In this document: in pieces, positions 2,529 to 48,736 of the stretch
How positions within the stretch are numbered: position 1 is the first letter of the stretch
Layout of the letters: each line of letters begins with the position of its first letter
Source: Gammaproteobacteria bacterium
Lineage (GTDB): Bacteria > Pseudomonadota > Gammaproteobacteria > G965209235
Direction of reading: 5' to 3'
Length of the DNA: 64,000 nucleotides
Assembly (NCBI GenBank): GCA_965209235.1
Contig: OZ242382.1
Span: 1,263,010-1,327,009 of the forward strand
Position numbers and translations under genes: made by a program
The notes under the pieces: model-generated
Databases searched by the model: none
Told to the model about the DNA's origin: nothing
Seen by the model: only the letters and a program-made list of their open reading frames with translations

Positions 2529-2550
2529 TTCGCCGCCGCGATCTGAGGGG

Positions 2551-8013: not shown

Positions 8014-8619
8014 ATGTTGCTGCAAAAGACCCCCAATGTCGGAAGATTGGCGGTGCTGTTCATCGTCCCATTTTTGGTGGCATGTGGTAGCGATGAGGCC
8101 GAAACTTCAAACACTGTTGAAAACGTCTCGTCTGAACGGCCGGTCGCCGACACGCGTGTATCAAACACTGCGCAGGTGTCACCGGCCGTAGCTCCTACGC
8201 GTGAGCAGCGCGTGACTGACGCTGACGTTCAGTCGGTGAGTGACACTGGTTTCCGCTCCTCAACGCGCGCCGAGCCTGTGGCGGCACTCAATACACGTTC
8301 AACGGTCTACTTCGACTTTGACAAGTCAGACATCAAGCCAGAGGCATTGGTGGCACTGGACCGGATCGTTGCTCGCGTCAAGGAAGACCTCACCACGCAG
8401 GTCCAAATCGAAGGTCACTGTGATGCTCGGGGTACCCGAGAGTACAACCTCGCTCTTGGTGAGCGCCGTGGATCAGCTGTTGCGGGTTACCTCGTCAGTC
8501 GTGGTGTTGCGAATTACCGAATCAAAGTTGTGAGCCGTGGAGAAGAGCAACTGGCGGCACTCGGTAATAACGAACGCGCTCACGCTCAAAACCGGCGCGC
8601 CGCGATTACTGTTAAGTAA
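8014..8619 (+). CDS. pal: Peptidoglycan-associated lipoprotein Pal (OmpA-like domain)
   Basis: Lipobox FLVAC. C-terminal OmpA domain (VYFDFDKSDIKPEA, GHCDARGTREYNLALGERR, NRRAAI). Lies directly after tolB. Confidence 0.85.
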   Translation: MLLQKTPNVGRLAVLFIVPFLVACGSDEAETSNTVENVSSERPVADTRVSNTAQVSPAVAPTREQRVTDADVQSVSDTGFRSSTRAEPVAALNTRSTVYFDFDKSDIKPEALVALDRIVARVKEDLTTQVQIEGHCDARGTREYNLALGERRGSAVAGYLVSRGVANYRIKVVSRGEEQLAALGNNERAHAQNRRAAITVK

Positions 8620-8629
8620 GACTGTTCTT

Positions 8630-9364
8630 GTGATCGCTGCATGGGTGAAGAGAGCGAATTGCATAAGCCGTTGGAGCGCGCTCGCACTTAGCATCGCGTG
8701 CGCCGTTCCCGTCGTCGAAGCTGCAAATGAACCAGAGTTCACGACCAAGGACGAGACTTTGAAAAGAACGCCCATGAATACAAAGCTCAAATACGTGCGT
8801 AAGTACCACAAAGACCACGGTGAGAGTCGCCCTCGGTTAGTTTGTGAAGGGGATGCTTGGCCCGCGTCGCTGACTGATCGCCAGGAAGACTTGGTGCGGT
8901 TTTTTGGGATTACGACTGACGAAACTGACAGCGGCTTGTTTACGTGCATTGTGTTACGGAAAGAAGCGTATGACGCGGAAGAAGATGGTGGCTGGAACGT
9001 CATCAGAGAACGCCTTGTTTTTCTTCCAAAAAAAGGCACGCTATATCTCGCCATCGTTGAGTTGCTCCTGAAGGAGGACACGTGGAAAGAGCGGTACGAC
9101 AGCTACTGGGGTAGATACGGTGACCCCGTGAACCTCGAAACTGGTCGGATCAGCCGGCCGAGCGACATTTCAGGCACTCAAACGTATGCATGGACGATTT
9201 ACCGGAGAGGTGCGCAACAGCGGATTTCTGGGCGCATCAGGCAACAGTCTCGCGAGATTGATCGTAGTATCATTTTGTATCCCGATAACACCGTGAAAGC
9301 CGGACAGCGGGTGGACTATCGCAAGGAACCGCTGATAGAGCGGTGGCAGCGCGACCAAGAGTAG
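8630..9364 (+). CDS. Hypothetical exported protein (orphan) inserted between two pal paralogs. GTG start inferred; the ORF from 8537 overlaps pal.
   Basis: Signal-peptide-like segment RWSALALSIACAVPVVEA/AN. I recognise no family motif. It looks more AT-rich than its flanks. A weak hairpin plus T6 lies downstream. Confidence 0.5.
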   Translation: MIAAWVKRANCISRWSALALSIACAVPVVEAANEPEFTTKDETLKRTPMNTKLKYVRKYHKDHGESRPRLVCEGDAWPASLTDRQEDLVRFFGITTDETDSGLFTCIVLRKEAYDAEEDGGWNVIRERLVFLPKKGTLYLAIVELLLKEDTWKERYDSYWGRYGDPVNLETGRISRPSDISGTQTYAWTIYRRGAQQRISGRIRQQSREIDRSIILYPDNTVKAGQRVDYRKEPLIERWQRDQE

Positions 9365-10963: not shown

Positions 10964-12025
10964 ATGTCGCAAACCTTACGCATACCACGGGCCTTATGGC
11001 GTGAGCATCGCGCTCGGCCGCCTGGTGACGTCTTTCAAGATCACGGCGATTTTCGCACCATGCGTGATCAGATTGCAAGTGAGCTACAGCGCCAGAACGC
11101 CTGCCTCGTTGCGCACTACTACGTGTCTGCTGACATTCAGGAAGTGGCGCTTGCGACCGGTGGGTGCGTCTCTGACTCGCTAGAAATGGCGCGTTTCGGA
11201 CGTGATAGCGACGCAACCACGTTGATTGTGGCCGGTGTGCGCTTCATGGGCGAGACCGCGAAGATTCTCAGTCCGGACAAGAGCGTATTGATCGTGTCTG
11301 ATCGCGCGGAGTGCTCGCTGGATCTCGGATGTCCGGCCGATCAGTTGGCTGAACTCAAAAAAGAACACCCAAACCATGTGCTCGTGGCTTATGCGAATAC
11401 ATCCGCCCGTGTTAAGGCGATGAGCGACTGGATCGTCACATCACGCAATGCGCGTGATATCTGCGAGAGAATTCTCCAAAGCGGGCAACAGTTGATTTTC
11501 GCCCCCGATAAGAACCTTGGTCAATGGGTGCGGGAAGAACTGGCAGCAGACGACGAAGACTTTATCTTGTGGGATGGTGCGTGCGTCGTGCACGAGGAAT
11601 TTCAAGGGGAAGGTGTTATTCGGCTGAAACACCAGTACCCTGAAGCGCCGATGTTGGCGCACCCAGAGTGTCCACAAAACGTGCTTGAGCACGCTGACGT
11701 GGTGGGTTCAACAACGGCGCTTATTCAAGCAGCGAAGTCTCGCACGGAAAAAGTGATGATTGTCGCGACTGATCGCGGGATCCTGCATGAGATGAGACGC
11801 GAAGCTCCAGACAAACGCTTTTTGGTTGCACCAGCGGCATCAGCCGGCGCGCCCTGTCGCGCCTGCGCGCGCTGCCCATGGATGGGACTCAACACGCTAA
11901 ATAGCGTTCTAGAAGTCCTACAAAACCCTTCAGAGACGCACGAGATCGCTATCGACCCGGATGTTAGCGTCCAGGCGGCGCGTCCGCTTGAGCGGATGCT
12001 GGCGTTCTCGAAAGCGCGCCAGTAG
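10964..12025 (+). CDS. nadA: Quinolinate synthase NadA
   Basis: NACLVAHYY...IQEVA...GGCVSDSLEMARFG aligns with E. coli NadA, and the C-terminal RPLERMLAF also matches. Confidence 0.9.
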   Translation: MSQTLRIPRALWREHRARPPGDVFQDHGDFRTMRDQIASELQRQNACLVAHYYVSADIQEVALATGGCVSDSLEMARFGRDSDATTLIVAGVRFMGETAKILSPDKSVLIVSDRAECSLDLGCPADQLAELKKEHPNHVLVAYANTSARVKAMSDWIVTSRNARDICERILQSGQQLIFAPDKNLGQWVREELAADDEDFILWDGACVVHEEFQGEGVIRLKHQYPEAPMLAHPECPQNVLEHADVVGSTTALIQAAKSRTEKVMIVATDRGILHEMRREAPDKRFLVAPAASAGAPCRACARCPWMGLNTLNSVLEVLQNPSETHEIAIDPDVSVQAARPLERMLAFSKARQ

Positions 12026-26802: not shown

Positions 26803-27363
26803 GTGTCGCGTAATGAATCGCATAGCGCGCCGGCGAATGCGGGCGAGCCGCCGTTCTCTCTTCAGTGTTTCCCACCACCGGCCGACGCTCCAACCGATCA
26901 CTGACGTCATACAACCCATCACAACGCAACCCAAGAATAGTTTGGTGAACCAGAGCGTTTCGTTGGCGTCGGTGCTGGCGCTTAAGATGCTATCTCCCAC
27001 CAGCAAAGACCCCACAGAATAAGCAATCACCCCCATGGGTGCATATGTCAGGGGGTTAGAAATCCAAACGAGCGCAAAGGCGCCAATGACATTCGCACGA
27101 AACACGTAGCACGCCATGCCAGCAAGGATCATCTGAAACGGGATCGGAATCCACGTGCAGATGCCGCCGATGGCGAGCCCGCGGGCGAGGCATCCGCCTC
27201 CAGTGCGCCAGAGTTCCGGGCGGTGGAGGAAGGGACGGAGTAAGCGCCCCATCGGACTGCGGAGAAACGCCCGGCGGCGAAACGGTCGACGCTGCGGTTT
27301 CAAGTGAAAAGATCCGATCTCAGACGTCGTGGCATCACGAGACGAGCGTCTGGAAATGCGCAT
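26776..27363 (-). CDS. DUF2062 domain membrane protein
   Basis: LHRPELW...ARGLAIGG...PFQMILAGMACYVFRANV...WISNPLT matches the DUF2062 pattern. Its position between lolD and comEC is as in Pseudomonas-type genomes. Confidence 0.7.
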   Translation of the reverse strand: MRISRRSSRDATTSEIGSFHLKPQRRPFRRRAFLRSPMGRLLRPFLHRPELWRTGGGCLARGLAIGGICTWIPIPFQMILAGMACYVFRANVIGAFALVWISNPLTYAPMGVIAYSVGSLLVGDSILSASTDANETLWFTKLFLGCVVMGCMTSVIGWSVGRWWETLKRERRLARIRRRAMRFITRHSSRQNRRL

Positions 27364-27390
27364 AGTGCATCACCCAATCGCTTTGCTCCG

Positions 27391-29154
27391 ATGCTGGCAC
27401 TTGTCTCAATTGTGACGCTAATTCGCGTGGCGTGCGATGTCTGGTGCGTAGATCCGCGTGGTGAGATTTCCTTCCCACCTGTTGAGGTGGTCGAGAATGT
27501 GGTTGAGGAGTCTCGGTGCGATCGCACGGGATGCCGGCTTGAAATGGCGTGGCGCGGCGCGGCAACGGCGATTGTTTGGAAGCGCCCGCTCCGTGTGTAC
27601 CGGGGTGATCACGTGCGCATCATGGTGCGTTGGTACTTCAGCCGCCACACCCAGCAATGGACAGGAATCGCTGGGGAAGCGACGCTGATTGATCGCCTGA
27701 TGCCCTGCGTTTCGCTGTGGCCGCGTTGTTGGCACGCGCGGTCGTCTCGGGCATTTGACCGGCATTGCGGAGACAGTGGCTGCGGGTTATGGCGGGCCAT
27801 GGCGTTAGGGGATGGCAGTCGCTTGCTTCCCGAGCAATGGACAGTGTTGAGAGACGGAGGGACGCTTCACGTGGCTGTCGTCTCGGGTCTCCATTTCGCA
27901 GCCGTAGCAGGTCTGTGGCTGTTTGTCATCCGGCGGCGCGTGCAGCAGTCGCTGGCCACCCAGGATTGGAGCCGGCTGATGGGACAGGTCATGCCAAGCA
28001 TTGGTCTTTGTCTGGGGTACTACGCGCTTGCGGGTGGCGGCATTTCGTCCATTCGCGCACTGTGCATGACCATGTTGGGGGCGTGGCTCTTGCTGATGAG
28101 GCGACGGTGGCATTGGTCTCGCTCATTGGCGGTCACGGTCTGCGTTGTCTTATCCATTGCGCCGCAAGCGATTGAGACGATGGGTTTTTGGTTGTCGTTT
28201 GCCGCGGTGGCAGCGATCCTGTCCATGAGCACTGGTCGAGAGACGTCTGATGAACCCACGAGTTGGACGACATGGGGCCATCTGTTGGTACGCGTTCAGT
28301 GGCGGGTGACGCTGGCCACGATCCCTGTCTTCGTTGGGTTTGGGCAGGGGATGGCTGTGGCCAGTCCGTTGGTGAACCTCATCGTGGTTCCTGGCACTGC
28401 GGTCGCGCTCTTGCCGGCTGCTGCTGGCATGTTGGCGCAGTCCCTCGTGCAGCACCCATGGGAATCGATGTCGTGGATTGCCGCAGCCCTCGAAAACGGT
28501 TTGTTTACGGTGTCAGCGGCAGCAGCTCGCGGACCGCAGCTTCCGCTGTGGGTCATGGCGCATCCAGCCGGTACAGCGTTGGCAGCTGTCTCGTGCACGT
28601 GGGCGCTATTTGGGAACGGGCGATGGCGATATGTGCCGTTGGCCGCGTTCGGTCTGTGTGTGATGGGCATGAGCGCCTCGTCGCTGCGCGCAGAGCGCTC
28701 CTGCACCATTGCGGGAGACTGCCGCACGTCGGTCCAGATGTTCTCTGGCGGTTATCGGGCGTACGCTACAGCGTTTGACCATTGGCAGCGAACGACTCAG
28801 TCATGCCGGATCTCGGTTGGTGATGACATCGCCATTGATATGGCGATGATGCCTGAATGGCCCGTAGTGGTTGATCAGGCTGTCACAGAAGAGGGACTGA
28901 AATGGATGCGGCGATGCGCGCGCTTTCACCCACTCGTGATCGCAGATCGAGACGCGGGCCCCAGTTATGCACTGCTGGCAGCCTTACGGCCCAAAACCGT
29001 TGTGCTAGCAGACCGTATTCGGTCTGCCGGTCGCGCCAGATTGGCGTGGTTTGAACGCACGGGAACCACGGTCAATCTCCCGCATTGGCCTCCGCAATGG
29101 CTTGTGCTTCGGTCTGATGAATTTGGGTCCGATCCGGTGTACGACGATGAATAG
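27391..29154 (+). CDS. comEC: ComEC/Rec2-family DNA internalisation channel protein; no metallo-beta-lactamase motif seen
   Basis: N-terminal OB-like region, then a competence-domain TM bundle with LHVAVVSGLHFAAV. Start uncertain (ORF opens at 27304). Confidence 0.7.
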   Translation: MLALVSIVTLIRVACDVWCVDPRGEISFPPVEVVENVVEESRCDRTGCRLEMAWRGAATAIVWKRPLRVYRGDHVRIMVRWYFSRHTQQWTGIAGEATLIDRLMPCVSLWPRCWHARSSRAFDRHCGDSGCGLWRAMALGDGSRLLPEQWTVLRDGGTLHVAVVSGLHFAAVAGLWLFVIRRRVQQSLATQDWSRLMGQVMPSIGLCLGYYALAGGGISSIRALCMTMLGAWLLLMRRRWHWSRSLAVTVCVVLSIAPQAIETMGFWLSFAAVAAILSMSTGRETSDEPTSWTTWGHLLVRVQWRVTLATIPVFVGFGQGMAVASPLVNLIVVPGTAVALLPAAAGMLAQSLVQHPWESMSWIAAALENGLFTVSAAAARGPQLPLWVMAHPAGTALAAVSCTWALFGNGRWRYVPLAAFGLCVMGMSASSLRAERSCTIAGDCRTSVQMFSGGYRAYATAFDHWQRTTQSCRISVGDDIAIDMAMMPEWPVVVDQAVTEEGLKWMRRCARFHPLVIADRDAGPSYALLAALRPKTVVLADRIRSAGRARLAWFERTGTTVNLPHWPPQWLVLRSDEFGSDPVYDDE

Positions 29155-29194
29155 GATCATAATCTCTCATCGGTCGTTATCCAGTGTCAGACTC

Positions 29195-29884
29195 ATGCTT
29201 GAACTCGTCGCCAGTACGGGTTGGATCGGCATCGTGCTGACGGTTATGTCGTTGCTAGCGACGGGCGTGGTGCTTGAGCGCTACTGGTTTTTGCGGAAAA
29301 GCATTGTTGCGCCTCCGCAATTGGGTAAGCAGGTGTTGGCTGAACTCAGTCGGCGCGAGTCGGTGCGTACCGACACCGCTGCGCGAATTTCCGTGCTCGG
29401 GATGCTGATCGATGCAGCGGTCAGAGCGCGGACAGCGGGCCCGGATGCGGCGACGCAGTTGGTGGAAGCGGCCGCGCGAATTGCGCTGCGAAAGTTGGAG
29501 ACGCGACTCGTGATTCTTCAGCTTATCGGTGCACTTGCTCCGATGCTCGGATTGCTCGGGACTGTCGTTGGCATGATCACAGTGTTCAACTCGTCTTTTT
29601 CTAGTGCGGGTGCCAACACGGACGCGCTCGCTCAAGGAATCGCCCAAGCGTTGGTCACCACCGTGTTTGGGCTGATCGTTGGCATGCCATCGCTGGCTTT
29701 TCATCGGCTGCTGCAGCGACGCATTGACGGGCTCATGACCGAGATGCAGCGCGACGTGACGGACTTTATGCATGAGCTCTTCTTGGTAGAGCGCGTGCAG
29801 CAATACCGGCGCGCGACGTCCGCTTCGCCAGCACCTGCCGGACGCACGGGCGCGCAGCCCGCTCCCAGGGCCCCGAGAGTCTAG
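29195..29884 (+). CDS. exbB: MotA/TolQ/ExbB-family proton channel protein
   Basis: Three TM segments and the LGLLGTVVGMI motif. Followed by an ExbD-like gene. Confidence 0.85.
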   Translation: MLELVASTGWIGIVLTVMSLLATGVVLERYWFLRKSIVAPPQLGKQVLAELSRRESVRTDTAARISVLGMLIDAAVRARTAGPDAATQLVEAAARIALRKLETRLVILQLIGALAPMLGLLGTVVGMITVFNSSFSSAGANTDALAQGIAQALVTTVFGLIVGMPSLAFHRLLQRRIDGLMTEMQRDVTDFMHELFLVERVQQYRRATSASPAPAGRTGAQPAPRAPRV

Positions 29885-29893
29885 GCACACGAC

Positions 29894-30319
29894 ATGCAGT
29901 TTCCGAGTGCCGGCACAACAGAGGAACGGATTGACTTAACGCCCCTCATTGACGTGGTCTTGTTGATTCTGATTTTTATCTTGGTCAGCGCCAAATTCAT
30001 TGAAACATCAAGTATCGATATCGCGTTGCCGGAAACAGGCGCGCCTGCTGATCGCAGCACCGACCGCGCCATGATTGTGGATATCGGCGCGGCAGGAACA
30101 TTGGCCATTAACGGCATCTTTGTGGAAGGGATCACCGACGGGGAGCAAACAGAGTCGCTCTCTGAGCTGTTTGAGCAAGAAAGCGCTGGTGACTTGAAGG
30201 CCATCATCTATATCCGCGCTGATGCTCGTGCGCCTCACGGATCGGTCGTGTTGGTGCTCGATACCGCGCAGCGTAATGGGTATTCGCGCGTGAGGTTTGC
30301 GGTGTCTCCTCGGCAGTAA
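29894..30319 (+). CDS. exbD: ExbD/TolR-family protein
   Basis: IDLTPLIDVVLLILIFILV is the conserved TM with Asp; the periplasmic domain has the expected length. Confidence 0.85.
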   Translation: MQFPSAGTTEERIDLTPLIDVVLLILIFILVSAKFIETSSIDIALPETGAPADRSTDRAMIVDIGAAGTLAINGIFVEGITDGEQTESLSELFEQESAGDLKAIIYIRADARAPHGSVVLVLDTAQRNGYSRVRFAVSPRQ

Positions 30320-30323
30320 CGAT

Positions 30324-33161
30324 ATGACGAAAACGGCAGGCCTTTGGTGGCGCTTTGGGAAGGACGCGAAATACAAGTACTTGTATTTATCGGGCATTAT
30401 TGTGGGTGCGCTGGTGACGGCGGCCGGCCAAGCGGGCTTGGTGGAGTGGATGCGGCGCATGTTGGCACAAGCCGACGTTCAGTCCGTTGACGGAACCATC
30501 GTGCCTTGGGATCTGTTGCTCGCTGTACCTGTCATTTTGTTGATCAACTCTCTGGGCGTTGGCTTGGGCGGTCTCTCGGTGCGGTACGGTGCCAACCATG
30601 CCGTGCAGGGCCTGCGCGTGCGGGCATTCGGCAGTTTGATGCGCCAGTCTCTGGAGTACATCCAGGCGCACGGTGAGTGGCATCTGGTGACGCGGCTCAC
30701 GCAAACGGCGCAGCGGGCGGGTGACGCAGCGGCCGGTGCTGTCGGCACGATGTTCAAAGACACCTTTGTGATCATCGCCATGATCGGGTACATCATCTAC
30801 ATCGCGCCCACGCAGATGTTCGTGGTGGCGCTGTGTGTGGTCGGTGCCGCGGTTGTGAACGCTTTGGCAGGGCGCATTTCCCGCAAGACTGCCACGCAAC
30901 TTCAGCAGGCGACGGGTGAACTCACGGGGTTGTCGGCTCAGTCGCTCGAAGGAGCGCCGATTGTCAAAGTCTTCCAAGGAGAGGCTCGGGAGCAGGAGCG
31001 TTTTCGTCAGGCCGGCATGGCGACGCGTCGATACAGCAATCGGCTTGGGATTGCGACTGTTCTGTCAGGGTTTCTGGTGGATGGTCTGGCTGGCGTGTTG
31101 CTTTTTGTGATCGCGTTATCGGTCTTTGGCGTGTTTGGAGGCAGTGCCATGCCGTCGGCGGATGTCGCGGCATTGATGTTTGCCATCGGCGCGTTGTTAC
31201 GTCCCGCCCGGGCGATGGCCAACTTGACGGTCATCCTTCACGCTGGAGCCGCCGCTTTGGATGAGTTGTATGGGTTGGTGGACTCAGAGCCGGAACAAGA
31301 AGATGGTGTGGGCCGGGATCTCGAGCGTCCGTTGAAGGGCGGCATTGAATTTCGAAATGTCACGTACACCTACCCCGCAGCCCAAGGGCGTGAGGCGAGC
31401 CAAGTGCTTCGCGGGTTGAACCTCAAAATCGAGCCGGGCGAGACCGTCGCGCTTGTGGGTGAGTCGGGTGGCGGAAAGTCGACGATCGCCAAGATTGCTG
31501 CCTGCCTGATTCAGCCTCAAACCGGACAAGTTCTTTTTGATGGCATGAATGCTGTCGGACTGGACTTGCGGTCATTGCGCAGTCAGGTGTCATATGTCTC
31601 ACAACGTGCCTTCATCTTTGACGACACGATTCGCGAAAACATTGCCTACGGCGCACAATCCACTGATGAAGCCATCTGGAATGCGGCAGAACGCGCGGCG
31701 ATTGCCGACTTCATCCGGTCATTGCCGCGAGGACTGGATACCCGCCTTGGCGGTGATCATCATTCGATGTCAGGCGGGCAGTTGCAACGTATTGCACTGG
31801 CTCGCGCGTTCTTCCGCGACGCGCCGATCCTCGTCTTGGATGAGGCCACATCGGCCCTTGATCAGGAAACCGAAATACACGTCCAGCGGGTGATTCAGGA
31901 CTTAAGTCGTGGTCGAACCGTCATTGCCATTGCGCACCGCCCCGAGACGGCCATTCGCGCCGACCGGGTTGTCTTGATCAAAGATGGGGATGTCGGAGCA
32001 GACGGCGACCACAACGAGCTTTTGCGCCACGATGCGATTTATCGGCGGACCATGACGGGAACCACCCACGCCCCGCAACCTGAGGCACCGGCGGTCCATC
32101 CTCTCGTTGAGGTGCAGAATCGGATGCCGTGGTTCATCCGTACCCCAATCACCTTGATGCGGTACGTCAGCATGCTGCTGGCGCCGTTTGATGGCTTAAT
32201 CGCGCAGTGGCAGATACGGCGCCATATGAGATCTCGGCGGACGATTACAGGAGAAGTGCCAGTGGTTGCCGTCGGAGGGGTCTTGAGAGATGGCAGCGGC
32301 TGCGAGGACTTCACGTCCTACATGATCGATCGACTGGCCGCGAGTGGCCAACGCGTGGGTGTTGCCATCAGGCAGGATGACGGGGTGAGCGGGGAAGCGC
32401 GCTTGATTCCCTCGGGGGCCACCGCGTTCTCTGCCGGCGGATGGGCGTCGCGCCTCGCGTCTGATCAACGGCTGACGGTGGCGACTGCGCGCACCGTCGA
32501 AGCCGCGTCTCGACTCCTTCTGATGCGCGGGGGAATCGACATTGTGATTGCGCATGATGCGCTTTCACGCTATGGCCTGCGGCGTGCCTTTGAGGTGGCG
32601 GTCGTCGATCTCGTTGAGTCCAAGCATCTCTCATTGGCATTGACACCAACTGGCTTATCCATGCTGGATTGGATTGCCGTACGTGGGTTTGGGGGACAGG
32701 TGGAGCCTGTGCGCGAGGATGTGCCTCAACTGGCCTTTTGGCATAGCTCGCCAGAGTTTCGCCATCTTCAGCAAAACGAAGTCATGTCACCCGTAGAATT
32801 CCGTGAAGCGCATGGATTGTGGGTTCATTTGGTGGCCCGGTCCGGCGAAGTGTGGCCCTTAACCCGCGCGTTGGAAGTGCTCGGATTTAAGGTCAAGGCG
32901 CATGTGCCCAATGCCCTTCAATGGGTTGATCCTGATGCACTCCGCCGTGGTGATGAGTTTCCGATTGTGGCATCGGCCTCGACGTCATCCATGATGCCGT
33001 CAGGCGCTGCTGAAATATGGGAGCTGTCAGATGAGGTGGCTACAGATGCAACGGGAGACCTGTTAGTGCGGCGAGTAATTGAAAAATTTGGGTTGGTGGA
33101 AAGACACATCGTGGACGCCATAGATGCCAAAGACGCTGATGATCAAGAGAAGGTGGCGTAA
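30324..33161 (+). CDS. msbA: Lipid A flippase MsbA (residues about 1-590) fused in frame to an LpxK-like domain with degenerate active-site motifs (about the last 345 residues)
   Basis: MsbA part: six TM segments, Walker A GESGGGKST, signature MSGGQLQRIA, Walker B ILVLDEATSALD, H-loop AIAHR. C-terminal part: VPVVAVGGVLRDGSGCEDF...GQRVGVAIRQDDG...IVIAHDALSRYGLRRAFEVAVVD aligns with E. coli LpxK VPVVVVGNLTAGGNGKTP...GIRVGVVSRGYGG...[23 protein letters not shown]. Confidence 0.85.
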   Translation: MTKTAGLWWRFGKDAKYKYLYLSGIIVGALVTAAGQAGLVEWMRRMLAQADVQSVDGTIVPWDLLLAVPVILLINSLGVGLGGLSVRYGANHAVQGLRVRAFGSLMRQSLEYIQAHGEWHLVTRLTQTAQRAGDAAAGAVGTMFKDTFVIIAMIGYIIYIAPTQMFVVALCVVGAAVVNALAGRISRKTATQLQQATGELTGLSAQSLEGAPIVKVFQGEAREQERFRQAGMATRRYSNRLGIATVLSGFLVDGLAGVLLFVIALSVFGVFGGSAMPSADVAALMFAIGALLRPARAMANLTVILHAGAAALDELYGLVDSEPEQEDGVGRDLERPLKGGIEFRNVTYTYPAAQGREASQVLRGLNLKIEPGETVALVGESGGGKSTIAKIAACLIQPQTGQVLFDGMNAVGLDLRSLRSQVSYVSQRAFIFDDTIRENIAYGAQSTDEAIWNAAERAAIADFIRSLPRGLDTRLGGDHHSMSGGQLQRIALARAFFRDAPILVLDEATSALDQETEIHVQRVIQDLSRGRTVIAIAHRPETAIRADRVVLIKDGDVGADGDHNELLRHDAIYRRTMTGTTHAPQPEAPAVHPLVEVQNRMPWFIRTPITLMRYVSMLLAPFDGLIAQWQIRRHMRSRRTITGEVPVVAVGGVLRDGSGCEDFTSYMIDRLAASGQRVGVAIRQDDGVSGEARLIPSGATAFSAGGWASRLASDQRLTVATARTVEAASRLLLMRGGIDIVIAHDALSRYGLRRAFEVAVVDLVESKHLSLALTPTGLSMLDWIAVRGFGGQVEPVREDVPQLAFWHSSPEFRHLQQNEVMSPVEFREAHGLWVHLVARSGEVWPLTRALEVLGFKVKAHVPNALQWVDPDALRRGDEFPIVASASTSSMMPSGAAEIWELSDEVATDATGDLLVRRVIEKFGLVERHIVDAIDAKDADDQEKVA
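30369..30388. repeat. Perfect 20-bp palindrome AAATACAAGTACTTGTATTT inside the first 25 codons of msbA
   Basis: Read directly and checked by reverse complement. It is AT-rich in a GC-rich context and encodes KYKYLY. Confidence 0.95.
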
Positions 33162-33361
33162 TGGATGATGTCATCGTGCAGATGCTTGCCTGCCCAAAAA
33201 CGCGTCAGCCATTGCGCAAAGATGGTGATTGGTTGATTTGCGATGCTGCGCAATTGAAGTACCCCATCGAAGATGGGTTACCGATCCTACTGCCGGACAG
33301 AGCAGTTGCGATTTCGTCTGACTCCAAGGAGGTGTCTGCAGACGACAGAACCACGTCGTGA
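33161..33361 (+). CDS. ycaR: Trm112/YcaR-family small protein
   Basis: LACPKTRQPL...LICDAAQLKYPIEDGLPILLPD matches the Trm112 family. The lpxK-ycaR-kdsB position is conserved. TAATG overlap. Confidence 0.85.
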   Translation: MDDVIVQMLACPKTRQPLRKDGDWLICDAAQLKYPIEDGLPILLPDRAVAISSDSKEVSADDRTTS

Positions 33362-34140
33362 CCGTCACGTCCTCTCCTTTTCGTGTGGTGATTCCAGCGC
33401 GGATTGGATCGACGCGTCTGCCGCGAAAAATGCTGGCAGACCTCTGTGGTGCTCCCGTGATTGCATGGACCGTCCAAGCCGCGCTGAACTCTCAAGCGGC
33501 TGAAGTGATTGTGGCGACGGATAGTCAACAGATAGCTGATGTGGTGGCCCCGTCCGGGGTGCAGGTGGTCATGACACCGGCCGACTTAGCCAGCGGTACC
33601 GATCGTGTGGCGCTGGCCATCACACTGCGTGAGATTCCGAATGAAGATCTGGTGGTGAGCGTTCAAGGAGATGAACCGTTTACGGAGTCAGACACCATTG
33701 CACGATGCGCGAATGCGGCATCATCACCTGATGTCGACATGGCCACCGTGTGCCGCGCTTTGGCAGTAGGAGACAGAGAGCGACATGATCCGGCTCACGT
33801 CAGGGTGGTGCGGAATCGAAGTGGCGCTGCGCTGTACTTTTCCCGAGCACCCATCGCCGATGCCGAGGTCGCCATCACAGGTGCATGTCCAGTGATGTCC
33901 CGCCATATTGGGATGTATGGCATGAGGGCCAAACGGTTTCATGACTTTGCGTCGTTGCCACCGTCCATGCTGGAATTGGCGGAGAAGCTGGAGCAATTGC
34001 GAGCGCTAGAAGCGGGGTGGCGCATGGCCTGTCCGCTGGTCTATCCCGCGCTTCCGATCTGTGCGATTGATACGCCTGCCGACCTATTAGACGCGAGCGA
34101 GATCGTCGCCCGGCACGGGCTCACAGCGCCGTCGTGGTAA
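33358..34140 (+). CDS. kdsB: 3-deoxy-manno-octulosonate cytidylyltransferase (CMP-Kdo synthetase)
   Basis: VVIPARIGSTRLPRKMLADLCGAPVI and VSVQGDEPF motifs. GTG start overlaps the ycaR stop. Confidence 0.9.
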   Translation: MTVTSSPFRVVIPARIGSTRLPRKMLADLCGAPVIAWTVQAALNSQAAEVIVATDSQQIADVVAPSGVQVVMTPADLASGTDRVALAITLREIPNEDLVVSVQGDEPFTESDTIARCANAASSPDVDMATVCRALAVGDRERHDPAHVRVVRNRSGAALYFSRAPIADAEVAITGACPVMSRHIGMYGMRAKRFHDFASLPPSMLELAEKLEQLRALEAGWRMACPLVYPALPICAIDTPADLLDASEIVARHGLTAPSW

Positions 34141-35228
34141 GCGCGCCCTGCATCGACACAAACGTCTCACTTCTCGCTGACAACGTACTCGGGCTACCGA
34201 CCCTCGCGGAGTTTTTGTGTCAGCCTCGTAATGAAGAAGAGGTTTTGGCCACGCTGGCATGGGCCCGGTCTCAAGGGGTGACGGTTCGAGTGCTGGGAAG
34301 TGGCACCAATATCGTGTGCGGCCCTGTCCTCTCGGGCCTCATCATCTCAACCAAGCGAATGCGTGCGCTGACGCAACACTCAAATGACCACGGCACTGCC
34401 TATGTCGCAGGCGCAGGCACATCATGGCAGTCCGTCTGTGATCTGGCGATCACAAGCGGGCATGGTGGTTTTGAATGCATGACCGGCATCCCTGGGACCG
34501 TGGGGGCTGCGTTGTATCAGAACATCGGTGCGTACGGTTCTGAGTTGTCTGATGTTTTGGTCTCTGTGCGGGTCATCGATCAGACCCACCCCGAACGTGG
34601 GGTGCAGGTGCACAGTGCCGCATGGGCCAACTTGTCGTATCGTTGGAGTCGGCTGCAAGACGAGCCCACCCGCTGGATCGTGACAGGGCTTCATCTCCAG
34701 TCCCGGTCTGACTACAATCCGAATTGGCGCTACGATCGTTTACGCACCGCTTTGGGTGCGTCGGCTCAGTCGCTGGAGCAACGCTGGCATGATGCGCCCA
34801 GTCACGAGACGCGAGCCCGTGTGCTGCGCGAGGTGCAGCACACCGTCGAGGGATTACGAGCAACGCGCCTGCCATCCCTTCAATCATCCGCGCATGTCGG
34901 TAGCTTCTTTAAGAACCCGGTGCTGAATGAAGAACAGATCGACGCCGTTCGGAAGCTGATCCCGGGAGTCGAACATTGGCAAGATGCGTCAGGCTCCTAC
35001 CGAATGAGAGCGGCAACAGTGATGGAGCATCTCTCGTTGCTCGGTGTCTCTGTTGGTCCCTGGTGTTTGAACCGCCAAAACCCTATGATCATCTGTGCCG
35101 ACAGACAAGCGCTGGCTTCGGCAGCTACACCGTATGCGGATCTGCAGTCGCTCGTGCGCGAAATCGTGACGACGTGGACAACGCGGGTCGGCATTGAACC
35201 ACGCGTTGAACCGACGTTATGGCCGTGA
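34134..35228 (+). CDS. murB: UDP-N-acetylenolpyruvoylglucosamine reductase
   Basis: FAD-binding PCMH region (VRVLGSGTNIV, GIPGTVGAALYQNIGAYG), MurB C-terminal domain (GSFFKNP), and the Pseudomonas-like kdsB-murB neighbourhood. Confidence 0.85.
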   Translation: MVSAPCIDTNVSLLADNVLGLPTLAEFLCQPRNEEEVLATLAWARSQGVTVRVLGSGTNIVCGPVLSGLIISTKRMRALTQHSNDHGTAYVAGAGTSWQSVCDLAITSGHGGFECMTGIPGTVGAALYQNIGAYGSELSDVLVSVRVIDQTHPERGVQVHSAAWANLSYRWSRLQDEPTRWIVTGLHLQSRSDYNPNWRYDRLRTALGASAQSLEQRWHDAPSHETRARVLREVQHTVEGLRATRLPSLQSSAHVGSFFKNPVLNEEQIDAVRKLIPGVEHWQDASGSYRMRAATVMEHLSLLGVSVGPWCLNRQNPMIICADRQALASAATPYADLQSLVREIVTTWTTRVGIEPRVEPTLWP

Positions 35229-36178
35229 TGACGAACCGACTTTTTCGGAAACTACGTGTCAGCCTGACGCGCACATGCAACTACGGATGCGCGTATTGCG
35301 CTCCCGATGGCCGACCGTTCATTGATCCAACGCCGCCGATGTCGATGCTGGACTGGCGCCGGGCTCTTGAGCTGTTGTACGCCAGTGGCCTTGAGACGGC
35401 GCGCATCACAGGAGGTGAACCATTGTTGTCGCCACAGGTGTACGACGTGATTGCCAGCGCCCGGGACATCGGATACCGAGATCTCGCGATCACGACAAAC
35501 GGCGAGCGCCTAGCGAAGTTCGCGCCGGCATTGCGCGACGCGGGCATTGAGCGCTGCAACGTCAGTCTGGATTCGTTACAAAAAGACGCGTTTCATCGCA
35601 TGACGCGCGGCGGCACGCTGCGCCGCGTACTGGCGGGCATTGAAGCCGCCGTGGCCGTGGGGTTTCGCGTGCGGATCAACATGGTGGTGATGAAGGGACT
35701 GAATGACAACGAGGTTGTCGATATGTTGACGTATGCCAGCGAGGTGGGAGCCGAGCTGCGTTATCTGGAACTGATGCGGTCAGGTGCGTCGTTTGAAAGT
35801 GACATGTGGACGCAGCATTTCGTGCCCATCCATGACATTCTCACGGCGATCGCAACGGTTTCCGAGGTAAAGGAAGAGCCGTATCTCGTGGGAGAGACGG
35901 CGCGTTGGTATGAGGCCAGTTCGTTGGGGCGATTTGGGGCGATCTGTAATACGAGCCTCCCTTTTTGCGAGGGGTGCGATCGGTTGCGGCTATCGTCGGA
36001 CGGCACATTGCGAGGGTGCCTGTCATCGTCAAGAACCTTCGACATGCGGCCATTGTTTTCGCTGCCTGTCTGCGATGCCAATGACGCGCTGTCGGATGTT
36101 CTTCATCGCGCACATCGCACTAAACGTACTCATCAATTTGAGGGGCAGCGTATTCCGCTGAGAGACATTGGCGGTTAG
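35219..36178 (+). CDS. moaA: GTP 3',8-cyclase MoaA (radical SAM)
   Basis: CNYGCAYC (CX3CX2C), a second cluster FCEGCDRLRLSSDGTLRGCL, and the C-terminal Gly-Gly tail (..DIGG). Confidence 0.85.
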   Translation: MAVMTNRLFRKLRVSLTRTCNYGCAYCAPDGRPFIDPTPPMSMLDWRRALELLYASGLETARITGGEPLLSPQVYDVIASARDIGYRDLAITTNGERLAKFAPALRDAGIERCNVSLDSLQKDAFHRMTRGGTLRRVLAGIEAAVAVGFRVRINMVVMKGLNDNEVVDMLTYASEVGAELRYLELMRSGASFESDMWTQHFVPIHDILTAIATVSEVKEEPYLVGETARWYEASSLGRFGAICNTSLPFCEGCDRLRLSSDGTLRGCLSSSRTFDMRPLFSLPVCDANDALSDVLHRAHRTKRTHQFEGQRIPLRDIGG

Positions 36179-36182
36179 ATCA

Positions 36183-37082
36183 ATGTCCGAGCGCCGCCGG
36201 CGCCTTGGGGTCCTGACCATGGCAGCGGCGTCCTGTTGTGCTGCCATCGGCGCGGCCAGCGTGCGGTACGTCACCGATGACCTCGGAGTGGCGGCGACGG
36301 TGTTTTATCGCGGTGCCTTTGCCATTGCGGTTTTACTGCCTATGTTGGCCGCCACGGGACGCTTGCGGGAAGCAACGGTGGCCGTGAGACCAGGCCTCGT
36401 GTTCTGGCGGTGTTTTTTCGGGCTGCTAGGCATGGTGGCGTATTTCTATTGCGTGGCTCACTTTGGGCTGGGAATTGGAATCGTTTCAGCGTTTTCGTCG
36501 CCGCTTTGGATTCCGATTTTGTCTGCTATTTTCCTGAAGGAAAAAGCGTCACCCATGCTCATTGGGTTAGCAGTGGTGGGATTTGTTGGGGTGTTGCTCA
36601 TCGTGGGCCCAAGCGCGCTGGTCTTGGATGTCGGCGCCATCATTTTTGTCCTCACGGGGATGTTAGCAGCGATGGCTATGATTTGTGTTCGCAAGTTGCG
36701 CAACACAGACCCACCGGTGCGGCTGACGTTTTGGTTCACAGTCATTTGTTGCTTGGGCTCGTTGCCGTTTGCGCTGGTGCAGGACATGACGTTGACGCTC
36801 CAAACCTCCGCAGGGGTCGGGGTTCTGGCGGCGGCCACCACCGCCAACCAGTGGTTGTTGTCTCGGGCGTATGCCTACGCGCCGGCGCCGGCTGTGGCTC
36901 CCGCGAGTTACTTGGCTGTGGCCGTGGGATGTGTGTTAGGTGTGTTGTTGTGGGATGAGCATTTCTCCATCCAAGTGCTGTCTGGTATTGGACTCATCAT
37001 CGCGGCCGGCGTTGGGGTGTCGGTCCTAGGATCGACATCAACCGCGAAGGCGCTTGTGACGCCAAAGGATCCGGCGTCATGA
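36183..37082 (+). CDS. DMT superfamily (EamA-like) transporter
   Basis: Ten TM segments arranged as two EamA-like halves. Confidence 0.75.
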   Translation: MSERRRRLGVLTMAAASCCAAIGAASVRYVTDDLGVAATVFYRGAFAIAVLLPMLAATGRLREATVAVRPGLVFWRCFFGLLGMVAYFYCVAHFGLGIGIVSAFSSPLWIPILSAIFLKEKASPMLIGLAVVGFVGVLLIVGPSALVLDVGAIIFVLTGMLAAMAMICVRKLRNTDPPVRLTFWFTVICCLGSLPFALVQDMTLTLQTSAGVGVLAAATTANQWLLSRAYAYAPAPAVAPASYLAVAVGCVLGVLLWDEHFSIQVLSGIGLIIAAGVGVSVLGSTSTAKALVTPKDPAS

Positions 37083-45465: not shown

Positions 45466-46178
45466 TGAATACGATTGATCTCGACCGTCTTGAGTTGTCA
45501 GACGGCCACGTCGTCCTCGACGCTGGGTGTGGAGAGGGGCGGCATGTCCGCGCGCTACGTCAGCACGGCGACCTTGAGGCGGTGGGTGTTGATATGCGGA
45601 TTGATCGCCTCAAACAGATACGTGGTGAGGATGGCGCCTCGGACAAAGTGCGGCTCTACGCCGCAGATATCACCCGGCTTCCTTTCCAAAGCGGTTCGTT
45701 TGACGCGGTGATTTGCAGCGAGGTGTTTGAGCACATTCCGTTGTGGCAACGTGCGGCACATGAACTGACACGAGTGCTGCGCGGCGGTGGTGTGTTTGCG
45801 GTCAGCGTGCCGGCCCGCATGCCCGAAATGTTGTGCTGGGCGTTGTCCAAGAAATATCGAACCACTCCTGGTGGGCATGTGCGTATCTTTCGGGAAGATG
45901 AACTGAAAGCTGGCGTGCAGGCTGCGGGGATGATTTATCTCGGTAAGCATTACGCCCACGCTTTGCATGTCCCATATTGGTGGTTGCGCTGCCTGTTCGA
46001 TAAGGATCCAGACCACCATCCGGTTGTGGGATGGTATCGCAGGCGCTTAGAGGCCGAAATGTTTGGCGGTGCACGCATGCTCACTCGTCTAGACCGTTGG
46101 GCGGCGCCTCATGCCGGCAAGAGTGTGGTGATGTACTTCAGAAAGCCAGCGGACTCGCAAACACTACTTGCGTCTTAG
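45465..46178 (+). CDS. Class I SAM-dependent methyltransferase
   Basis: VLDAGCGEGRH (motif I) and FDAVICSEVFEHIP. TGATG overlap with the GT4 gene. Confidence 0.85.
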   Translation: MNTIDLDRLELSDGHVVLDAGCGEGRHVRALRQHGDLEAVGVDMRIDRLKQIRGEDGASDKVRLYAADITRLPFQSGSFDAVICSEVFEHIPLWQRAAHELTRVLRGGGVFAVSVPARMPEMLCWALSKKYRTTPGGHVRIFREDELKAGVQAAGMIYLGKHYAHALHVPYWWLRCLFDKDPDHHPVVGWYRRRLEAEMFGGARMLTRLDRWAAPHAGKSVVMYFRKPADSQTLLAS

Positions 46179-47178
46179 CGCTTCAGTGCACCGTTTAGCC
46201 GAAACGGCGAGCTGGCTCGCAACACATCAGCTCCGCAACGGATTCATCCCGTGGTATCCGGGTGGTCGCGGCGACATGTGGAATCACCTAGAGTGCGTGA
46301 TGGCGCTGGCGTCTTATGGCCATGGGCCGCAGGCGGTGCGTGGACTCGCGTTTGCGTCGCGCACGCAACGTGACAACGGCTCATGGCCTCTCGAATGGCT
46401 TGGCGATGGCACGGAAGTGGTCGGCGGTGCATCGCATCATGCCGCTTACTTTGCAGTTGCGCTTCACCACGTCGCTGCTGCGCTGGGTGATCACGATCTC
46501 GCGGGTCACTACTTGCCTGTGGCGCGCAAGGGGCTGGACTATGCGCTGTCTCTTCAGCGTCCCGACGGTGCAATGAACTGGGCCAGCGTTGGCGAGGCCA
46601 TATGGGACGTTCCGTTATTGATTGGCAATGCCTCGGTTAGTCTGGGTTTGGCGGTCGGTCACGTTGCCGAGCGCGCAGTGTCACCGAGAGATACGCCACG
46701 ATGCCAACGCTACGCGGCGGCGCGTGGCCGTCTGTGCGAGGCTCTGAATGATCGGAGTGGGTTTGACGCGGGGCACAGGGACCAAGTGAAGCATGCCATG
46801 CACTGGTATTACCCGTCCTTGTACGCCGGCAAGCCGCTCCCTGTCGAAGGCATCGATCGGTATGTGATGGATGGCTGTGGGTCGCGGTGCGTGGCTGATC
46901 AGCCGTGGGTGACGGCTGCGGAAACCGCTGAACTCACCATGGCACTTCGTCTGACACAAACATCTTCGCCGTGCGCGGATGACTTATTGGCGTGCATTGA
47001 ACAGATGCGCGACGATGATGGTGGCTACTGGACGGGCTGGCAGGTCGCGGCACAAACGCATTGGCCGGTACAAAAAACGACATGGACGGCGGCGGCTGTG
47101 TTGCTGGCTCACGACTTTGCATCAGGGGGGACCACGCGTGATACCTTCCTCATCAGTCGCAGTCAGAGTGATGAGTGA
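46168..47178 (+). CDS. Prenyltransferase/terpenoid-cyclase-like alpha/alpha-toroid protein (QW-type repeats)
   Basis: Repeated Q-x-x-(D/N)G-x-W-like motifs: QLRNGFIPW, QRDNGSWPL, QRPDGAMNW, MRDDDGGYWTGW. Overlaps the upstream methyltransferase stop. Confidence 0.65.
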   Translation: MRLSASVHRLAETASWLATHQLRNGFIPWYPGGRGDMWNHLECVMALASYGHGPQAVRGLAFASRTQRDNGSWPLEWLGDGTEVVGGASHHAAYFAVALHHVAAALGDHDLAGHYLPVARKGLDYALSLQRPDGAMNWASVGEAIWDVPLLIGNASVSLGLAVGHVAERAVSPRDTPRCQRYAAARGRLCEALNDRSGFDAGHRDQVKHAMHWYYPSLYAGKPLPVEGIDRYVMDGCGSRCVADQPWVTAAETAELTMALRLTQTSSPCADDLLACIEQMRDDDGGYWTGWQVAAQTHWPVQKTTWTAAAVLLAHDFASGGTTRDTFLISRSQSDE

Positions 47179-47208: not shown

Positions 47209-47820
47209 TCAGACGTCGCAGAGGCGTTTGGCCACCTCCAGTGATTGGATGCGATCAACGACGGTCCATCTGTCGGACAACGCGCGTTGCCATGCGAGCC
47301 GAGGCGCTTGACCGCCGTCCTCTTCGCGGTGATAGATATCGTGCATCGCGACTAATCCGTCCGGTTTGACAAGCGGTAACCAAGTTGCGAGATCGTTGGT
47401 GGCAGCGATGGCCGAGTGTCCGCCATCAATGAATAGGAGGTCAATTTGGGGTCGAAGCAAGCCGCCAACGATCAACGACGGACCCACGACGGGAAATACC
47501 ACATCCGTTAACTCAGCGGCAGTGAGCGCGCGTCGTAAGTGTGGCAACGTATCGATGAGGCCAGACGGTTCGTCGAGAAGTTCGGGGTCGTGATACTGTT
47601 CCCCTGGCTGTTGTTCTTCGCTACCTCGGTGGTGATCCACCGTGATCACATAGGCTCCGGCTTCCTTGGCTCCTTGCCCGAGATAGACGGTCGATCGCCC
47701 GCAGTATGATCCGATTTCGACGATGGTTCCGCGGCGTGAAACGCCTTGCGCCAGTTGAAAAAGCGCGCGGCCTTCGGTTTGTGAAAAGAAGCCTTTAAGC
47801 AACTGTGGGTCAAGCGTCAT
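47209..47820 (-). CDS. Class I SAM-dependent methyltransferase (Methyltransf_24 / O-methyltransferase-like)
   Basis: IVEIGSYCGRSTVYL (motif I), DLLFIDGGH, and LVKPDGLVAMHD. Confidence 0.7.
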   Translation of the reverse strand: MTLDPQLLKGFFSQTEGRALFQLAQGVSRRGTIVEIGSYCGRSTVYLGQGAKEAGAYVITVDHHRGSEEQQPGEQYHDPELLDEPSGLIDTLPHLRRALTAAELTDVVFPVVGPSLIVGGLLRPQIDLLFIDGGHSAIAATNDLATWLPLVKPDGLVAMHDIYHREEDGGQAPRLAWQRALSDRWTVVDRIQSLEVAKRLCDV

Positions 47821-48736
47821 AAGGAGGAGGCAGTGACTGCCAGCCGAAGGCCTGAGCGACTTCTTTCAGCCCCGTATCTTTATTCAAGAAATACCGGTTG
47901 TAGTGCATGGACGTCGCTTCGGGATGTTGCGTGAACCAAGGGCGGTAAATCGCAGATAGCCACGCGCCGTAGTCGTCTGCTGTTTTTAGATCCGCGATCT
48001 CTGAGCGGTGAATCTCAAACAGAATGTCATCCCCCATGCGTTGGTAGGCCATCGCAACAATCGGGACGTTCGCTTTGGTCGCCAGGCGGTAGGGCGAATC
48101 CACAACGTCATATGGTCGTGGCGCAAAGGCCAGTGATGCCCGGCGTTTGTCAACATCCCAAGCCTTGATGTCGTTGGCAATGGTCACGACGCGGTGATCG
48201 GCTATCGCTCGCCGCGCTTGCCGCAGATCTTTGAGATAGATGATCTCGCAGACTTGCTCAAACTGACTCCATACCCATGATGTCATGGAACTGCGTCCAC
48301 CCTGCCGAGCCAGTAACACTGGCTTGATGCCAGTCTCTTCGTAGATCACGCGAAAACACGCGAAGCTACAGAGTTGAGCCATGGGCGAATGGATGCCCGT
48401 GAACAGGGCTCCAGCCCGCGCGCACTCGAGAATGCGCCTCTTCGTATCGCCGGTCATGACAACTCTTTTCGTGAGATCAATTCTGTCGCGAAACAAGATC
48501 CCAACCGCATGCAGAATCTGCTCGTTGTAGCGCGCGTGGCACACAAACCGGTACCACAGCGATGCTCCCGGAAACAGGATGCGTCCGTTGCGCAAGGCAA
48601 AGACCCACCGTTTGAAGATCAGCGGGAACGTCAGCACGACCAGCCCCCACCGCATGGCGTGGCCATGCGGGCCTGCCAGTGCAGCAAAAAAGCTCGCGCC
48701 AAACGGGTCGGACGCGGGTGACGACGGTTGTGTCAT
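47810..48736 (-). CDS. Hypothetical protein, possibly an LpxL/HtrB-type (lysophospholipid acyltransferase superfamily) acyltransferase
   Basis: Family-like length, hydrophobic N-terminus and layout: ALFTGIHSPMAQL versus the xxxGxHxGNWE region, and VVTIANDIKA...PYRLATKANVPIVAM versus the DQ...A...LA...PVV region. The HX4D motif reads HX4Q. Weak, by eye only. Confidence 0.35.
   Translation of the reverse strand: MTQPSSPASDPFGASFFAALAGPHGHAMRWGLVVLTFPLIFKRWVFALRNGRILFPGASLWYRFVCHARYNEQILHAVGILFRDRIDLTKRVVMTGDTKRRILECARAGALFTGIHSPMAQLCSFACFRVIYEETGIKPVLLARQGGRSSMTSWVWSQFEQVCEIIYLKDLRQARRAIADHRVVTIANDIKAWDVDKRRASLAFAPRPYDVVDSPYRLATKANVPIVAMAYQRMGDDILFEIHRSEIADLKTADDYGAWLSAIYRPWFTQHPEATSMHYNRYFLNKDTGLKEVAQAFGWQSLPPPYDA

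Follow-up and report, generated by a model that had tools for sequence, protein, structure and literature searches.

An MsbA fusion carrying an LpxK-derived domain without kinase motifs at the ancestral lpxK position of a gammaproteobacterium

Can a proteobacterium dispense with the lipid A 4'-kinase LpxK, or does it have a non-orthologous or relocated one, and can the LpxK scaffold play a non-catalytic role on the lipid A flippase MsbA? These questions are raised by a stretch of 64,000 nucleotides (nt) from a gammaproteobacterium (assembly GCA_965209235.1, contig OZ242382.1, positions 1,263,010 to 1,327,009 of the forward strand), hereafter called the window. LpxK is considered to catalyse the final step in lipid A synthesis that cannot be dispensed with. 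In the window, a diderm bacterium has at its sole visible lpxK locus a copy, catalytically dead as judged from its residues, which is joined to MsbA. This anomaly is clear and specific, affects an essential step and was found in one genome, and either answer would bear on the coupling of lipopolysaccharide (LPS) synthesis to export and on the safety of LpxK and MsbA as antibiotic targets. The reading preferred here, with a probability of about 0.55, is that the LpxK-derived part is a non-catalytic pseudoenzyme appendage of LpxK fold on MsbA.

A single reading frame without interruption covers msbA and the gene at the ancestral lpxK position. This open reading frame (ORF) extends from 30297 to 33161 on the (+) strand, on which all features described below are located unless stated otherwise, and comprises 954 codons counted from a TTG. 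From the ATG at 30324, which is likely the true start of the fusion, a product of 945 amino acids (aa) is obtained that is 100% identical to the database protein P0002, the sole member of its cluster, which stems from an NCBI/ENA record. Residue numbers follow the 954-aa numbering unless the 945-aa protein is named. Within the fusion ORF (30324 to 33161, stop codon TAA at 33159-33161), Pfam placed the MsbA transmembrane domain (ABC_membrane, residues 35-291) at 30399 to 31169 and ABC_tran at residues 371-519, the nucleotide-binding domain extends over 31407 to 32048, and the match to the MsbA profile stops near residue 584. A Pro/Thr-rich tether of approximately 25 residues without an in-frame stop follows at 32049 to 32123, reading ..RRTMTGTTHAPQPEAPAVHPLVEVQNR before Met610. 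The degenerate domain derived from LpxK, recognized by profile, BLASTP and fold match, spans Met610 to Ala954 (32124 to 33158).

Both halves lie in frame 0 with zero stops in the approximately 25 linking codons, and two TGA triplets in the tether stretch fall in another frame. The original prediction of a single 954-codon ORF composed of MsbA and an LpxK homologue in the same frame is thus borne out. The LpxK-derived region that it delimited also stands, but its start has to be moved from 32127 to one codon earlier, since Met610 (ATG 32124) is the ancestral LpxK start, retained where LpxK profiles begin. A GAGG motif 11 nt 5' of this ATG may be a relic Shine-Dalgarno site. Because the two halves share the same frame, one indel error could not have made the fusion. 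An assembly or sequencing artefact, by which the fusion or the degenerate sequence would not be real, is therefore hardly credible. The fusion protein is represented by one record only, as an artefact would be expected to be, but it would have required two compensating errors or a miscalled stop. Moreover, the other frames hold no better LpxK motifs, the divergence spans 345 codons with normal codon usage, unlike an error pattern, and independent MsbA-LpxK fusions occur in other datasets.

The retained ATG 32124 with the GAGG in front of it would also fit a second product, a free 38-kDa pseudo-LpxK that is translated alone from Met610 in addition to, or instead of, the fusion. This is improbable, as a spacing of 11 nt is long for a Shine-Dalgarno site, no stop is present to free upstream ribosomes and no promoter-like site was found near 32124. 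Such a separate product would agree either with a pseudoenzyme or with a translated relic.

To what extent is the C-terminal part still an LpxK homologue? The Pfam family LpxK (PF02606) matched residues 625-786 with 45.7 bits (gathering threshold 27, E=6e-12), covering the N-terminal half of the model only. A profile of our own, built from 128 full-length LpxKs and comprising 360 positions, was matched from position 21 to 325 with 83 bits (E=6e-27), exclusively in the frame of the ORF. BLASTP against the ordinary LpxK P0001 revealed 25% identity over 289 aa (E=6e-13). The homology to tetraacyldisaccharide 4'-kinase proposed earlier therefore extends over nearly the full length of the family profile. 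By contrast, the equivalog model TIGR00682 (lpxK) gave only 25.7 bits, which is below its cutoff of 91.95. A phmmer search of the domain against the PDB sequences yielded no match, LpxK being reached by profile and fold only. An AlphaFold2 model of the domain, computed with an alignment of 60 intact LpxKs, predicted the two-lobe LpxK fold with its N-terminal helix (mean predicted local distance difference test score 85.4, predicted template modelling score 0.84). In Foldseek, the six best PDB matches of the model were all LpxK of Aquifex aeolicus, with E values down to 6e-16 and template modelling scores of 0.61-0.77. What the domain has in common with LpxK (PF02606, TIGR00682; A. aeolicus structures 4EHX, 4EHY, 4ITL and 4LKV) is thus whole-length homology, the predicted fold and the genomic slot between msbA and ycaR-kdsB. 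What separates it from the family is the fusion to MsbA, a score of 0.28 of the equivalog cutoff, acidic character where the family is basic and the loss of the catalytic residues.

This loss was determined by MAFFT and by profile alignment, A. aeolicus residue numbers being mapped through Escherichia coli and invariance being assessed in 131 other aligned LpxKs. Among the columns conserved to at least 90%, the window domain keeps 19 of 53 (family minimum 39, median 52), and at a conservation of at least 95% it keeps 12 of 36 (family minimum 27, median 36). K51, D99, E100, D138, D139, R171 and E172 are invariant in all 131 LpxKs, the Walker A Thr position is occupied by T or S in 131 of 131, and H261 is present in 129. 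In the window domain, the P-loop VGNxxxGGxGKTP is replaced by VGGVLRDGSGCED (32271-32309). Its Walker A sequence, GVLRDGSGCE, does not match the pattern GxxGxGK[ST]. K51 is changed to Cys669, T52 to Glu670, the P-loop Pro to Asp671 and Gly57 (E. coli numbering) to Asp665, by which the P-loop has gained three acidic residues (Asp665, Glu670 and Asp671). The motif SRGYGG reads IRQDDG (32367 to 32384), with Arg692 corresponding to R72 kept and Y74 changed to Asp694. GDEP is replaced by GGWA, the GDE codons at 32436 to 32444 encoding GGW (D99 to Gly715, E100 to Trp716), and Val734 is found in place of R119. In the Walker B-type motif, DDGLQH has become HDALSR (32553-32570), where D138 is changed to His753, Q142 to Ser757 and H143 to Arg758, while D139 is kept as Asp754.

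The substitutions in the P-loop, SRGYGG, AGDEP, TDDGLQH and GIGHPPRFF (consensus GIGxPxRFF, here RSGEVWPLT) that had been noted by eye were all reproduced by both alignments, and neither revealed an intact GxxGxGK[ST] or an Asp pair in the Walker A and catalytic Asp columns. Beyond these, an 8-residue deletion at 32646 to 32657 removed the LPxGPLRE loop with R171 and E172, LTPTG being left of LLPAGPLRE. Furthermore, PDH is replaced by NAL with H261 changed to Leu874 (32916 to 32918), and TEKDAVK by SASTSSM with K280 changed to Ser895 (32973 to 32993). Of the A. aeolicus residues whose importance was demonstrated by mutagenesis (K51, T52, D99, E100, D138, D139, H261, R72, R119, H143, R171 and K280; PMC6286764), only the equivalents of R72 and D139 remain, while H143 has become Arg. 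The central claim of the original prediction, that the LpxK-derived domain has lost its kinase motifs, is thus sustained by the conserved columns and by the TIGR00682 score.

As read from these residues, a canonical P-loop kinase mechanism is excluded for the window domain, because the now acidic P-loop has Cys-Glu-Asp instead of Lys-Thr-Pro, because the catalytic Asp-Glu is replaced by Gly-Trp and the first Walker B Asp by His, and because the equivalents of His261 and Lys280 and the R171/E172 loop are gone. In A. aeolicus LpxK, the exchanges K51A and T52A lowered the turnover number (kcat) 3000-fold, D138A and D139A lowered it 4700- and 8100-fold, respectively, and H261A, which affects the partner of the catalytic Asp, 850-fold (PMC6286764, summarising Emptage et al. 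2012-2014). Could the domain nevertheless still be a lipid A 4'-kinase, with a non-canonical active site in which other residues stand in for the Lys of Walker A and for the catalytic Asp? It occupies the only lpxK position seen, no second lpxK exists in any frame of the 64-kb window, kdsB is intact, so that synthesis of lipid A carrying 3-deoxy-D-manno-octulosonate (Kdo) is presumably active, and the Kdo transferase WaaA of E. coli requires the 4'-phosphate (PMC6286764). However, at least ten independently essential residues, some of them invariant in 131 homologues, are gone together. Already a single Ala exchange at K51, T52, D138 or D139 is as costly as described above, Asp665, Glu670 and Asp671 would repel the phosphates of ATP, and the R171/E172 loop is deleted. 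A non-canonical kinase is thus most unlikely.

A hidden or second lpxK was rejected for the 64-kb window, as a six-frame profile search of its whole length detected neither a frameshifted nor a further copy; the sole match was in the frame of the ORF. An alternative kinase was not found among the unannotated ORFs of the window either.

The degeneration is not a property of the whole genome. PurA of the same genome keeps 88 of 105 columns conserved to at least 95% (84%), which demonstrates that the decay is specific to LpxK. KdsB, RuvB, AspS, TolB, MiaA, TrpS and HemH exceed their equivalog cutoffs, and the other genes in the window (aspS, ruvCAB, tolQRAB-pal-cpoB, mrcA, miaA-hflXKC, purA and rib genes) are dense and healthy-looking. 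Expressed as fractions of the respective TIGR cutoffs, PurA reached 0.92, MoaA 0.91, MurB 0.76, MsbA 0.64 and LpxK 0.28. The identity to the E. coli proteins follows the same line when the window is compared to P0041, a fusion whose LpxK half is intact (see below). KdsB shows 39% in the window against 44% in P0041 and MsbA 31% against 40%, but LpxK 22% against 43%. Genome-wide degeneration as a cause was therefore rejected by the PurA and NCBIfam controls.

Among 5.8 billion proteins, the best non-self match of PurA (54644-56008) shares only about 41% identity with it, and the named top matches belong to Ostreibacterium, Oleiagrimonas, Dokdonella, Mizugakiibacter and SAR86, gammaproteobacteria of Xanthomonadales and Cardiobacteriales type. 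The lineage is a fast-evolving orphan long branch. With a source contig of 1.47 Mb and approximately 59% guanine plus cytosine (GC), it may be a reduced, fast-evolving and perhaps host-associated gammaproteobacterium of one of these two types.

Is the domain still under selection? Intrinsic drift simulations were performed on one genome, drift without stops being simulated under the HKY model. When drift was unconstrained, the frame stayed open in 2% of the runs at 20% amino-acid change, in 0.07% at 30% and in none of 1500 runs at 40% or more. That two thirds of these columns are gone, although invariant in the family, implies roughly one replacement per site. A frame which is still open at this stage indicates that stops were selected against. 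The coding log-likelihood of the domain is 0.278 per codon and its GC contents at the three codon positions are 0.66, 0.47 and 0.62, all of which is within the range of 18 real window genes. Under stop-free drift, by contrast, the window genes gave 0.19 ± 0.04 per codon at 0.7 substitutions per codon and 0.16, with a second-position GC content of 0.53, at 1.07 substitutions per codon, and 0.278 was reached in none of 56 runs. Since the codon statistics are gene-like beyond drift, selection acted on the encoded protein and not just on stops. At the protein level, the LpxK-derived region remains under constraint.

The domain kept only 5 of the 26 conserved polar or catalytic columns, compared to 11.9 ± 2.2 under drift, and a value as low as this was obtained in 0.5% of the simulations. 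This loss beyond drift points to a dismantling of the active site and not to uniform decay. In sum, the domain is translated and under protein-level constraint, the active site has been dismantled, and a structural constraint specific to LpxK is no longer detectable.

The last point requires that the domain be weighed against a translated relic, i.e. a remnant without a function of its own in a cell for which the LpxK activity has become dispensable or has been replaced. For this, the genes around the fusion have to be considered. Their order in the window is comEC-exbB-exbD-fusion-ycaR-kdsB-murB, followed by moaA, an EamA-family gene and a LysE-family gene. In E. coli, the order is ycaI(comEC)-msbA-lpxK-ycaQ-ycaR-kdsB, and this agreement places the fusion in the ancestral lpxK slot, as had been concluded from the flanking synteny before. 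The exbB-exbD pair (29051 to 30319) ends with the exbD stop codon at 30317-30319, 4 nt 5' of the ATG of the fusion. At the other end, the ycaR gene (Trm112p-like; 33161 to 33361) starts with an ATG that overlaps the stop codon of the fusion (TAATG), and its ribosome-binding site AAGGTGG sits within the last codons of the fusion ORF. ycaR is joined by a GTGA overlap to kdsB (CMP-Kdo synthetase; 33358 to 34140), which scored 174 with TIGR00466 (cutoff 155), and stop/start overlaps run on via murB, moaA and the EamA gene to the LysE gene. No promoter-like site above chance was found between the fusion and kdsB.

Nearly all junctions from exbD to the LysE-family gene (30317-37082) are overlaps or gaps of a few bases, namely TAA-cgat-ATG, TAATG and GTGA followed by overlaps of 7, 10, 11 and 4 nt. 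They suggest one long translationally coupled operon of LPS, peptidoglycan, molybdenum-cofactor and transporter genes. The ComEC homologue upstream of it (27304-29154, 616 aa) matches the Competence domain only; unlike in E. coli YcaI, a metallo-beta-lactamase domain was not detected.

According to the relic explanation, the frame would be kept open for the translational coupling of ycaR, kdsB and murB, avoiding polarity, and because a misfolded tail on the essential MsbA would be harmful. The position of the ycaR ribosome-binding site inside the fusion ORF, the overlap with its stop codon, the subsequent chain of overlapping genes and the lack of a promoter-like site up to kdsB are in line with it, and a fast-evolving lineage with a contig of only 1.47 Mb would fit ongoing gene erosion. 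On the other hand, the fully gene-like codon and composition statistics should have been degraded by drift constrained only by stops. Moreover, apart from one deletion of 8 residues the domain has retained its full length, although bacterial genomes are biased towards deletion, a short linker would preserve the coupling equally well, and the catalytic and polar residues were removed beyond the expectation for drift. A relic is possible but less probable than a pseudoenzyme. If it applied, the locus would provide a clean example of a dead domain preserved by translational coupling and by fusion to an essential protein.

Several observations weigh against the pseudoenzyme, and some of them agree with a relic. 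The downstream coupling to the ORF end is in itself a reason for an open frame which needs no domain function. When real LpxKs were drifted without stops to the matched family identity of 0.233, the structural signals of the domain proved to be no better than those of the controls: the correlation of the hydrophobic pattern was r=0.50 compared to 0.49 ± 0.04, 14 of 27 conserved apolar, Gly or Pro columns were kept compared to 13.6, and the profile score of 83 bits is below that of the drifted LpxKs (114 ± 15). PurA, however, beats its own drift control with a correlation of 0.718 against 0.670 ± 0.029 and about two standard deviations more conserved columns. As PurA beats drift and the domain does not, the data give no positive indication of a preserved LpxK fold. 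The AlphaFold model leans to the LpxK fold, since the alignment used for this prediction consisted of intact LpxKs. Whereas the N-lobe is still basic (net charge +5, family median +6), the C-lobe shows strong divergence and an acidic net charge (-12, family median -1), resulting in an isoelectric point of 5.8 for the whole domain (family median 9.0), which is unexpected for a binder of anionic lipids. Finally, the searches described below found this domain in no second genome. Because structural positions are kept as drift predicts, a pseudoenzyme and a translated relic are not separable from one genome.

For the preferred pseudoenzyme reading, the product would be a 104-kDa protein, in which a flexible Pro-rich tether at the C-terminus of the nucleotide-binding domain connects MsbA to a non-catalytic appendage of LpxK fold that would no longer bind or use ATP. 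In LpxK, the 1-phosphate of the lipid is held by R72, R119 and H143, and R72 also binds the distal glucosamine (PMC6286764). According to the alignment, R72 is kept as Arg692, R119 is replaced by Val734 and H143 by Arg758. The survival of the membrane-interface helix at the N-terminus, of a basic N-lobe and of two among the three contacts to the 1-phosphate makes residual binding to the membrane or to lipid A precursors the most plausible remaining property. The appendage might bind the membrane or a lipid A precursor beside the flippase and thereby act as a passive anchor or, alternatively, as a regulatory domain sensing its ligand. A C-terminal regulatory domain which follows the nucleotide-binding domain, binds a ligand and modulates the ATPase is present in MalK, MetN (C2 domain) and ModC. 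These belong to importers, however, and their domains have unrelated small folds; the analogy is one of mechanism and not a family assignment. With pseudoenzymes derived from P-loop or other kinases, the window domain has in common that an enzyme scaffold is maintained in an open frame while the catalytic residues are replaced. It differs in being known from a single genome.

What does the locus imply for lipid A? Since kdsB is intact and the Tol-Pal genes are present, an outer membrane with a Kdo-containing glycolipid is expected. We infer that any 4'-kinase activity still required comes from a gene outside the window or else that lipid A is made without 4'-phosphate. The WaaA of A. aeolicus, unlike that of E. 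coli, is able to use the unphosphorylated disaccharide weakly (PMC6286764).

The MsbA half shows the ABC exporter architecture that had been predicted: beside ABC_membrane and ABC_tran, all ATPase motifs are intact (Walker A GGGKST, Q-loop, signature SGGQ, Walker B LDEATS and H-loop). Over the first 585 residues, MsbA (TIGR02203) gave the best NCBIfam match, with 388 bits, which is below its equivalog cutoff of 602, and the syntenic position supports orthology to MsbA. The best relatives of this half are at most about 38% identical; a homology search with the whole protein identified no close MsbA relative, its results being swamped by double-length ABC transporters. In E. coli MsbA, R78, R148 and K299 form a basic ring which holds the phosphoglucosamines of lipid A, the Arg78 of each subunit holding one phosphoglucosamine of the substrate in the inner cavity, and the exchanges R78A, R148A and K299A abolish the lipid-stimulated ATPase activity (PMC10945598). 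In the fusion, R148 and K299 are conservatively replaced by Lys and Arg, respectively, whereas the equivalent of R78 is Asn (30519-30521; residue 75 of the 945-aa protein) according to one alignment of the transmembrane segment. This Asn could reflect an altered head group of lipid A and is only a lead for a bypass of the 4'-kinase. Carried further, it is conceivable, but rather unlikely, that the organism does not have any working LpxK. In this case, Kdo-lipid A would never be 4'-phosphorylated, MsbA would have adapted by the loss of Arg78, and the dead domain would be a recognition or regulatory module for the unphosphorylated precursor. If true, a proteobacterium would by nature run the Raetz pathway independently of LpxK, and lipid A biosynthesis would have its first pseudoenzyme.

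Do relatives of the fusion exist? LpxK and MsbA are well known, and MsbA-LpxK fusions are already contained in the sequence databases but are uncharacterised; in the searchable literature, neither a fusion of this kind nor a pseudoenzyme of LpxK was found described. Three other fusions were detected, P0041 (957 aa) and the partial proteins P0125 and P0024, which originate from metagenomic gammaproteobacteria of separate datasets. They show the same domain order as the window fusion, with ABC_membrane, ABC_tran, a tether of 20-45 residues and LpxK, and the P0041 locus shares the neighbourhood fusion-kdsB-murB-EamA-DUF1285 with the window. Unlike the window domain, however, the LpxK halves of all three have every kinase motif intact. 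The fused LpxKs rank 13, 38 and 87 among the 131 homologues by affinity to the window domain and are not mutual nearest relatives. It thus appears that fusion is recurrent between these adjacent and often overlapping genes, and that the degeneration does not result from it. A fusion ancestral to a clade shared with P0041 was rejected, because the window domain has no special affinity to the fused LpxKs and these are not mutual nearest relatives.

The degenerate domain, on the other hand, has no counterpart in the data searched. It was absent from a word-indexed search of 5.8 billion proteins (one weak match), HMMER over 1.84 billion representatives returned the domain itself and 330 ordinary LpxKs with at most 59 bits, and scans of GTDB genomes and JGI metagenomes did not find it. 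Relatives with the fusion thus exist, while none with the degenerate domain was detected in these searches; among the 131 LpxK homologues retrieved, the window domain alone is without the invariant catalytic residues.

The contig that carries P0041 (ENA ERZ25766944 contig_17) contains split or truncated genes at 476-2573 and 11069-11605. Cys_Met_Meta_PP is divided into 122 and 63 aa and a transporter of the major facilitator superfamily into 202 and 325 aa, and kdsB comprises only 178 aa. This suggests frameshift errors, so that the gene models of this contig need caution, while the existence of the fusions in general does not.

Some further ORFs of the window deserve mention. A 275-aa ORF without Pfam match (8537-9364) lies between tolB and pal in the otherwise canonical tolQRAB-pal-cpoB cluster. 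The longest ORFs of ribH (58845-59744, (-) strand) and ruvC (2281-3090) encode 299 and 269 aa, of which only residues 195-290 match DMRL synthase in the former while the domain of the latter is located at 92-236. These long N-terminal extensions probably arise from start codons misplaced by the mechanical ORF call, although they could be real. Two ORFs of about 310-340 aa without significant Pfam match (46168-47178 and, on the (-) strand, 47810-48736) cluster with a GT4 glycosyltransferase, two methyltransferases, a phosphomannomutase and an AMP-binding enzyme, and this cluster may be a surface-glycan locus.

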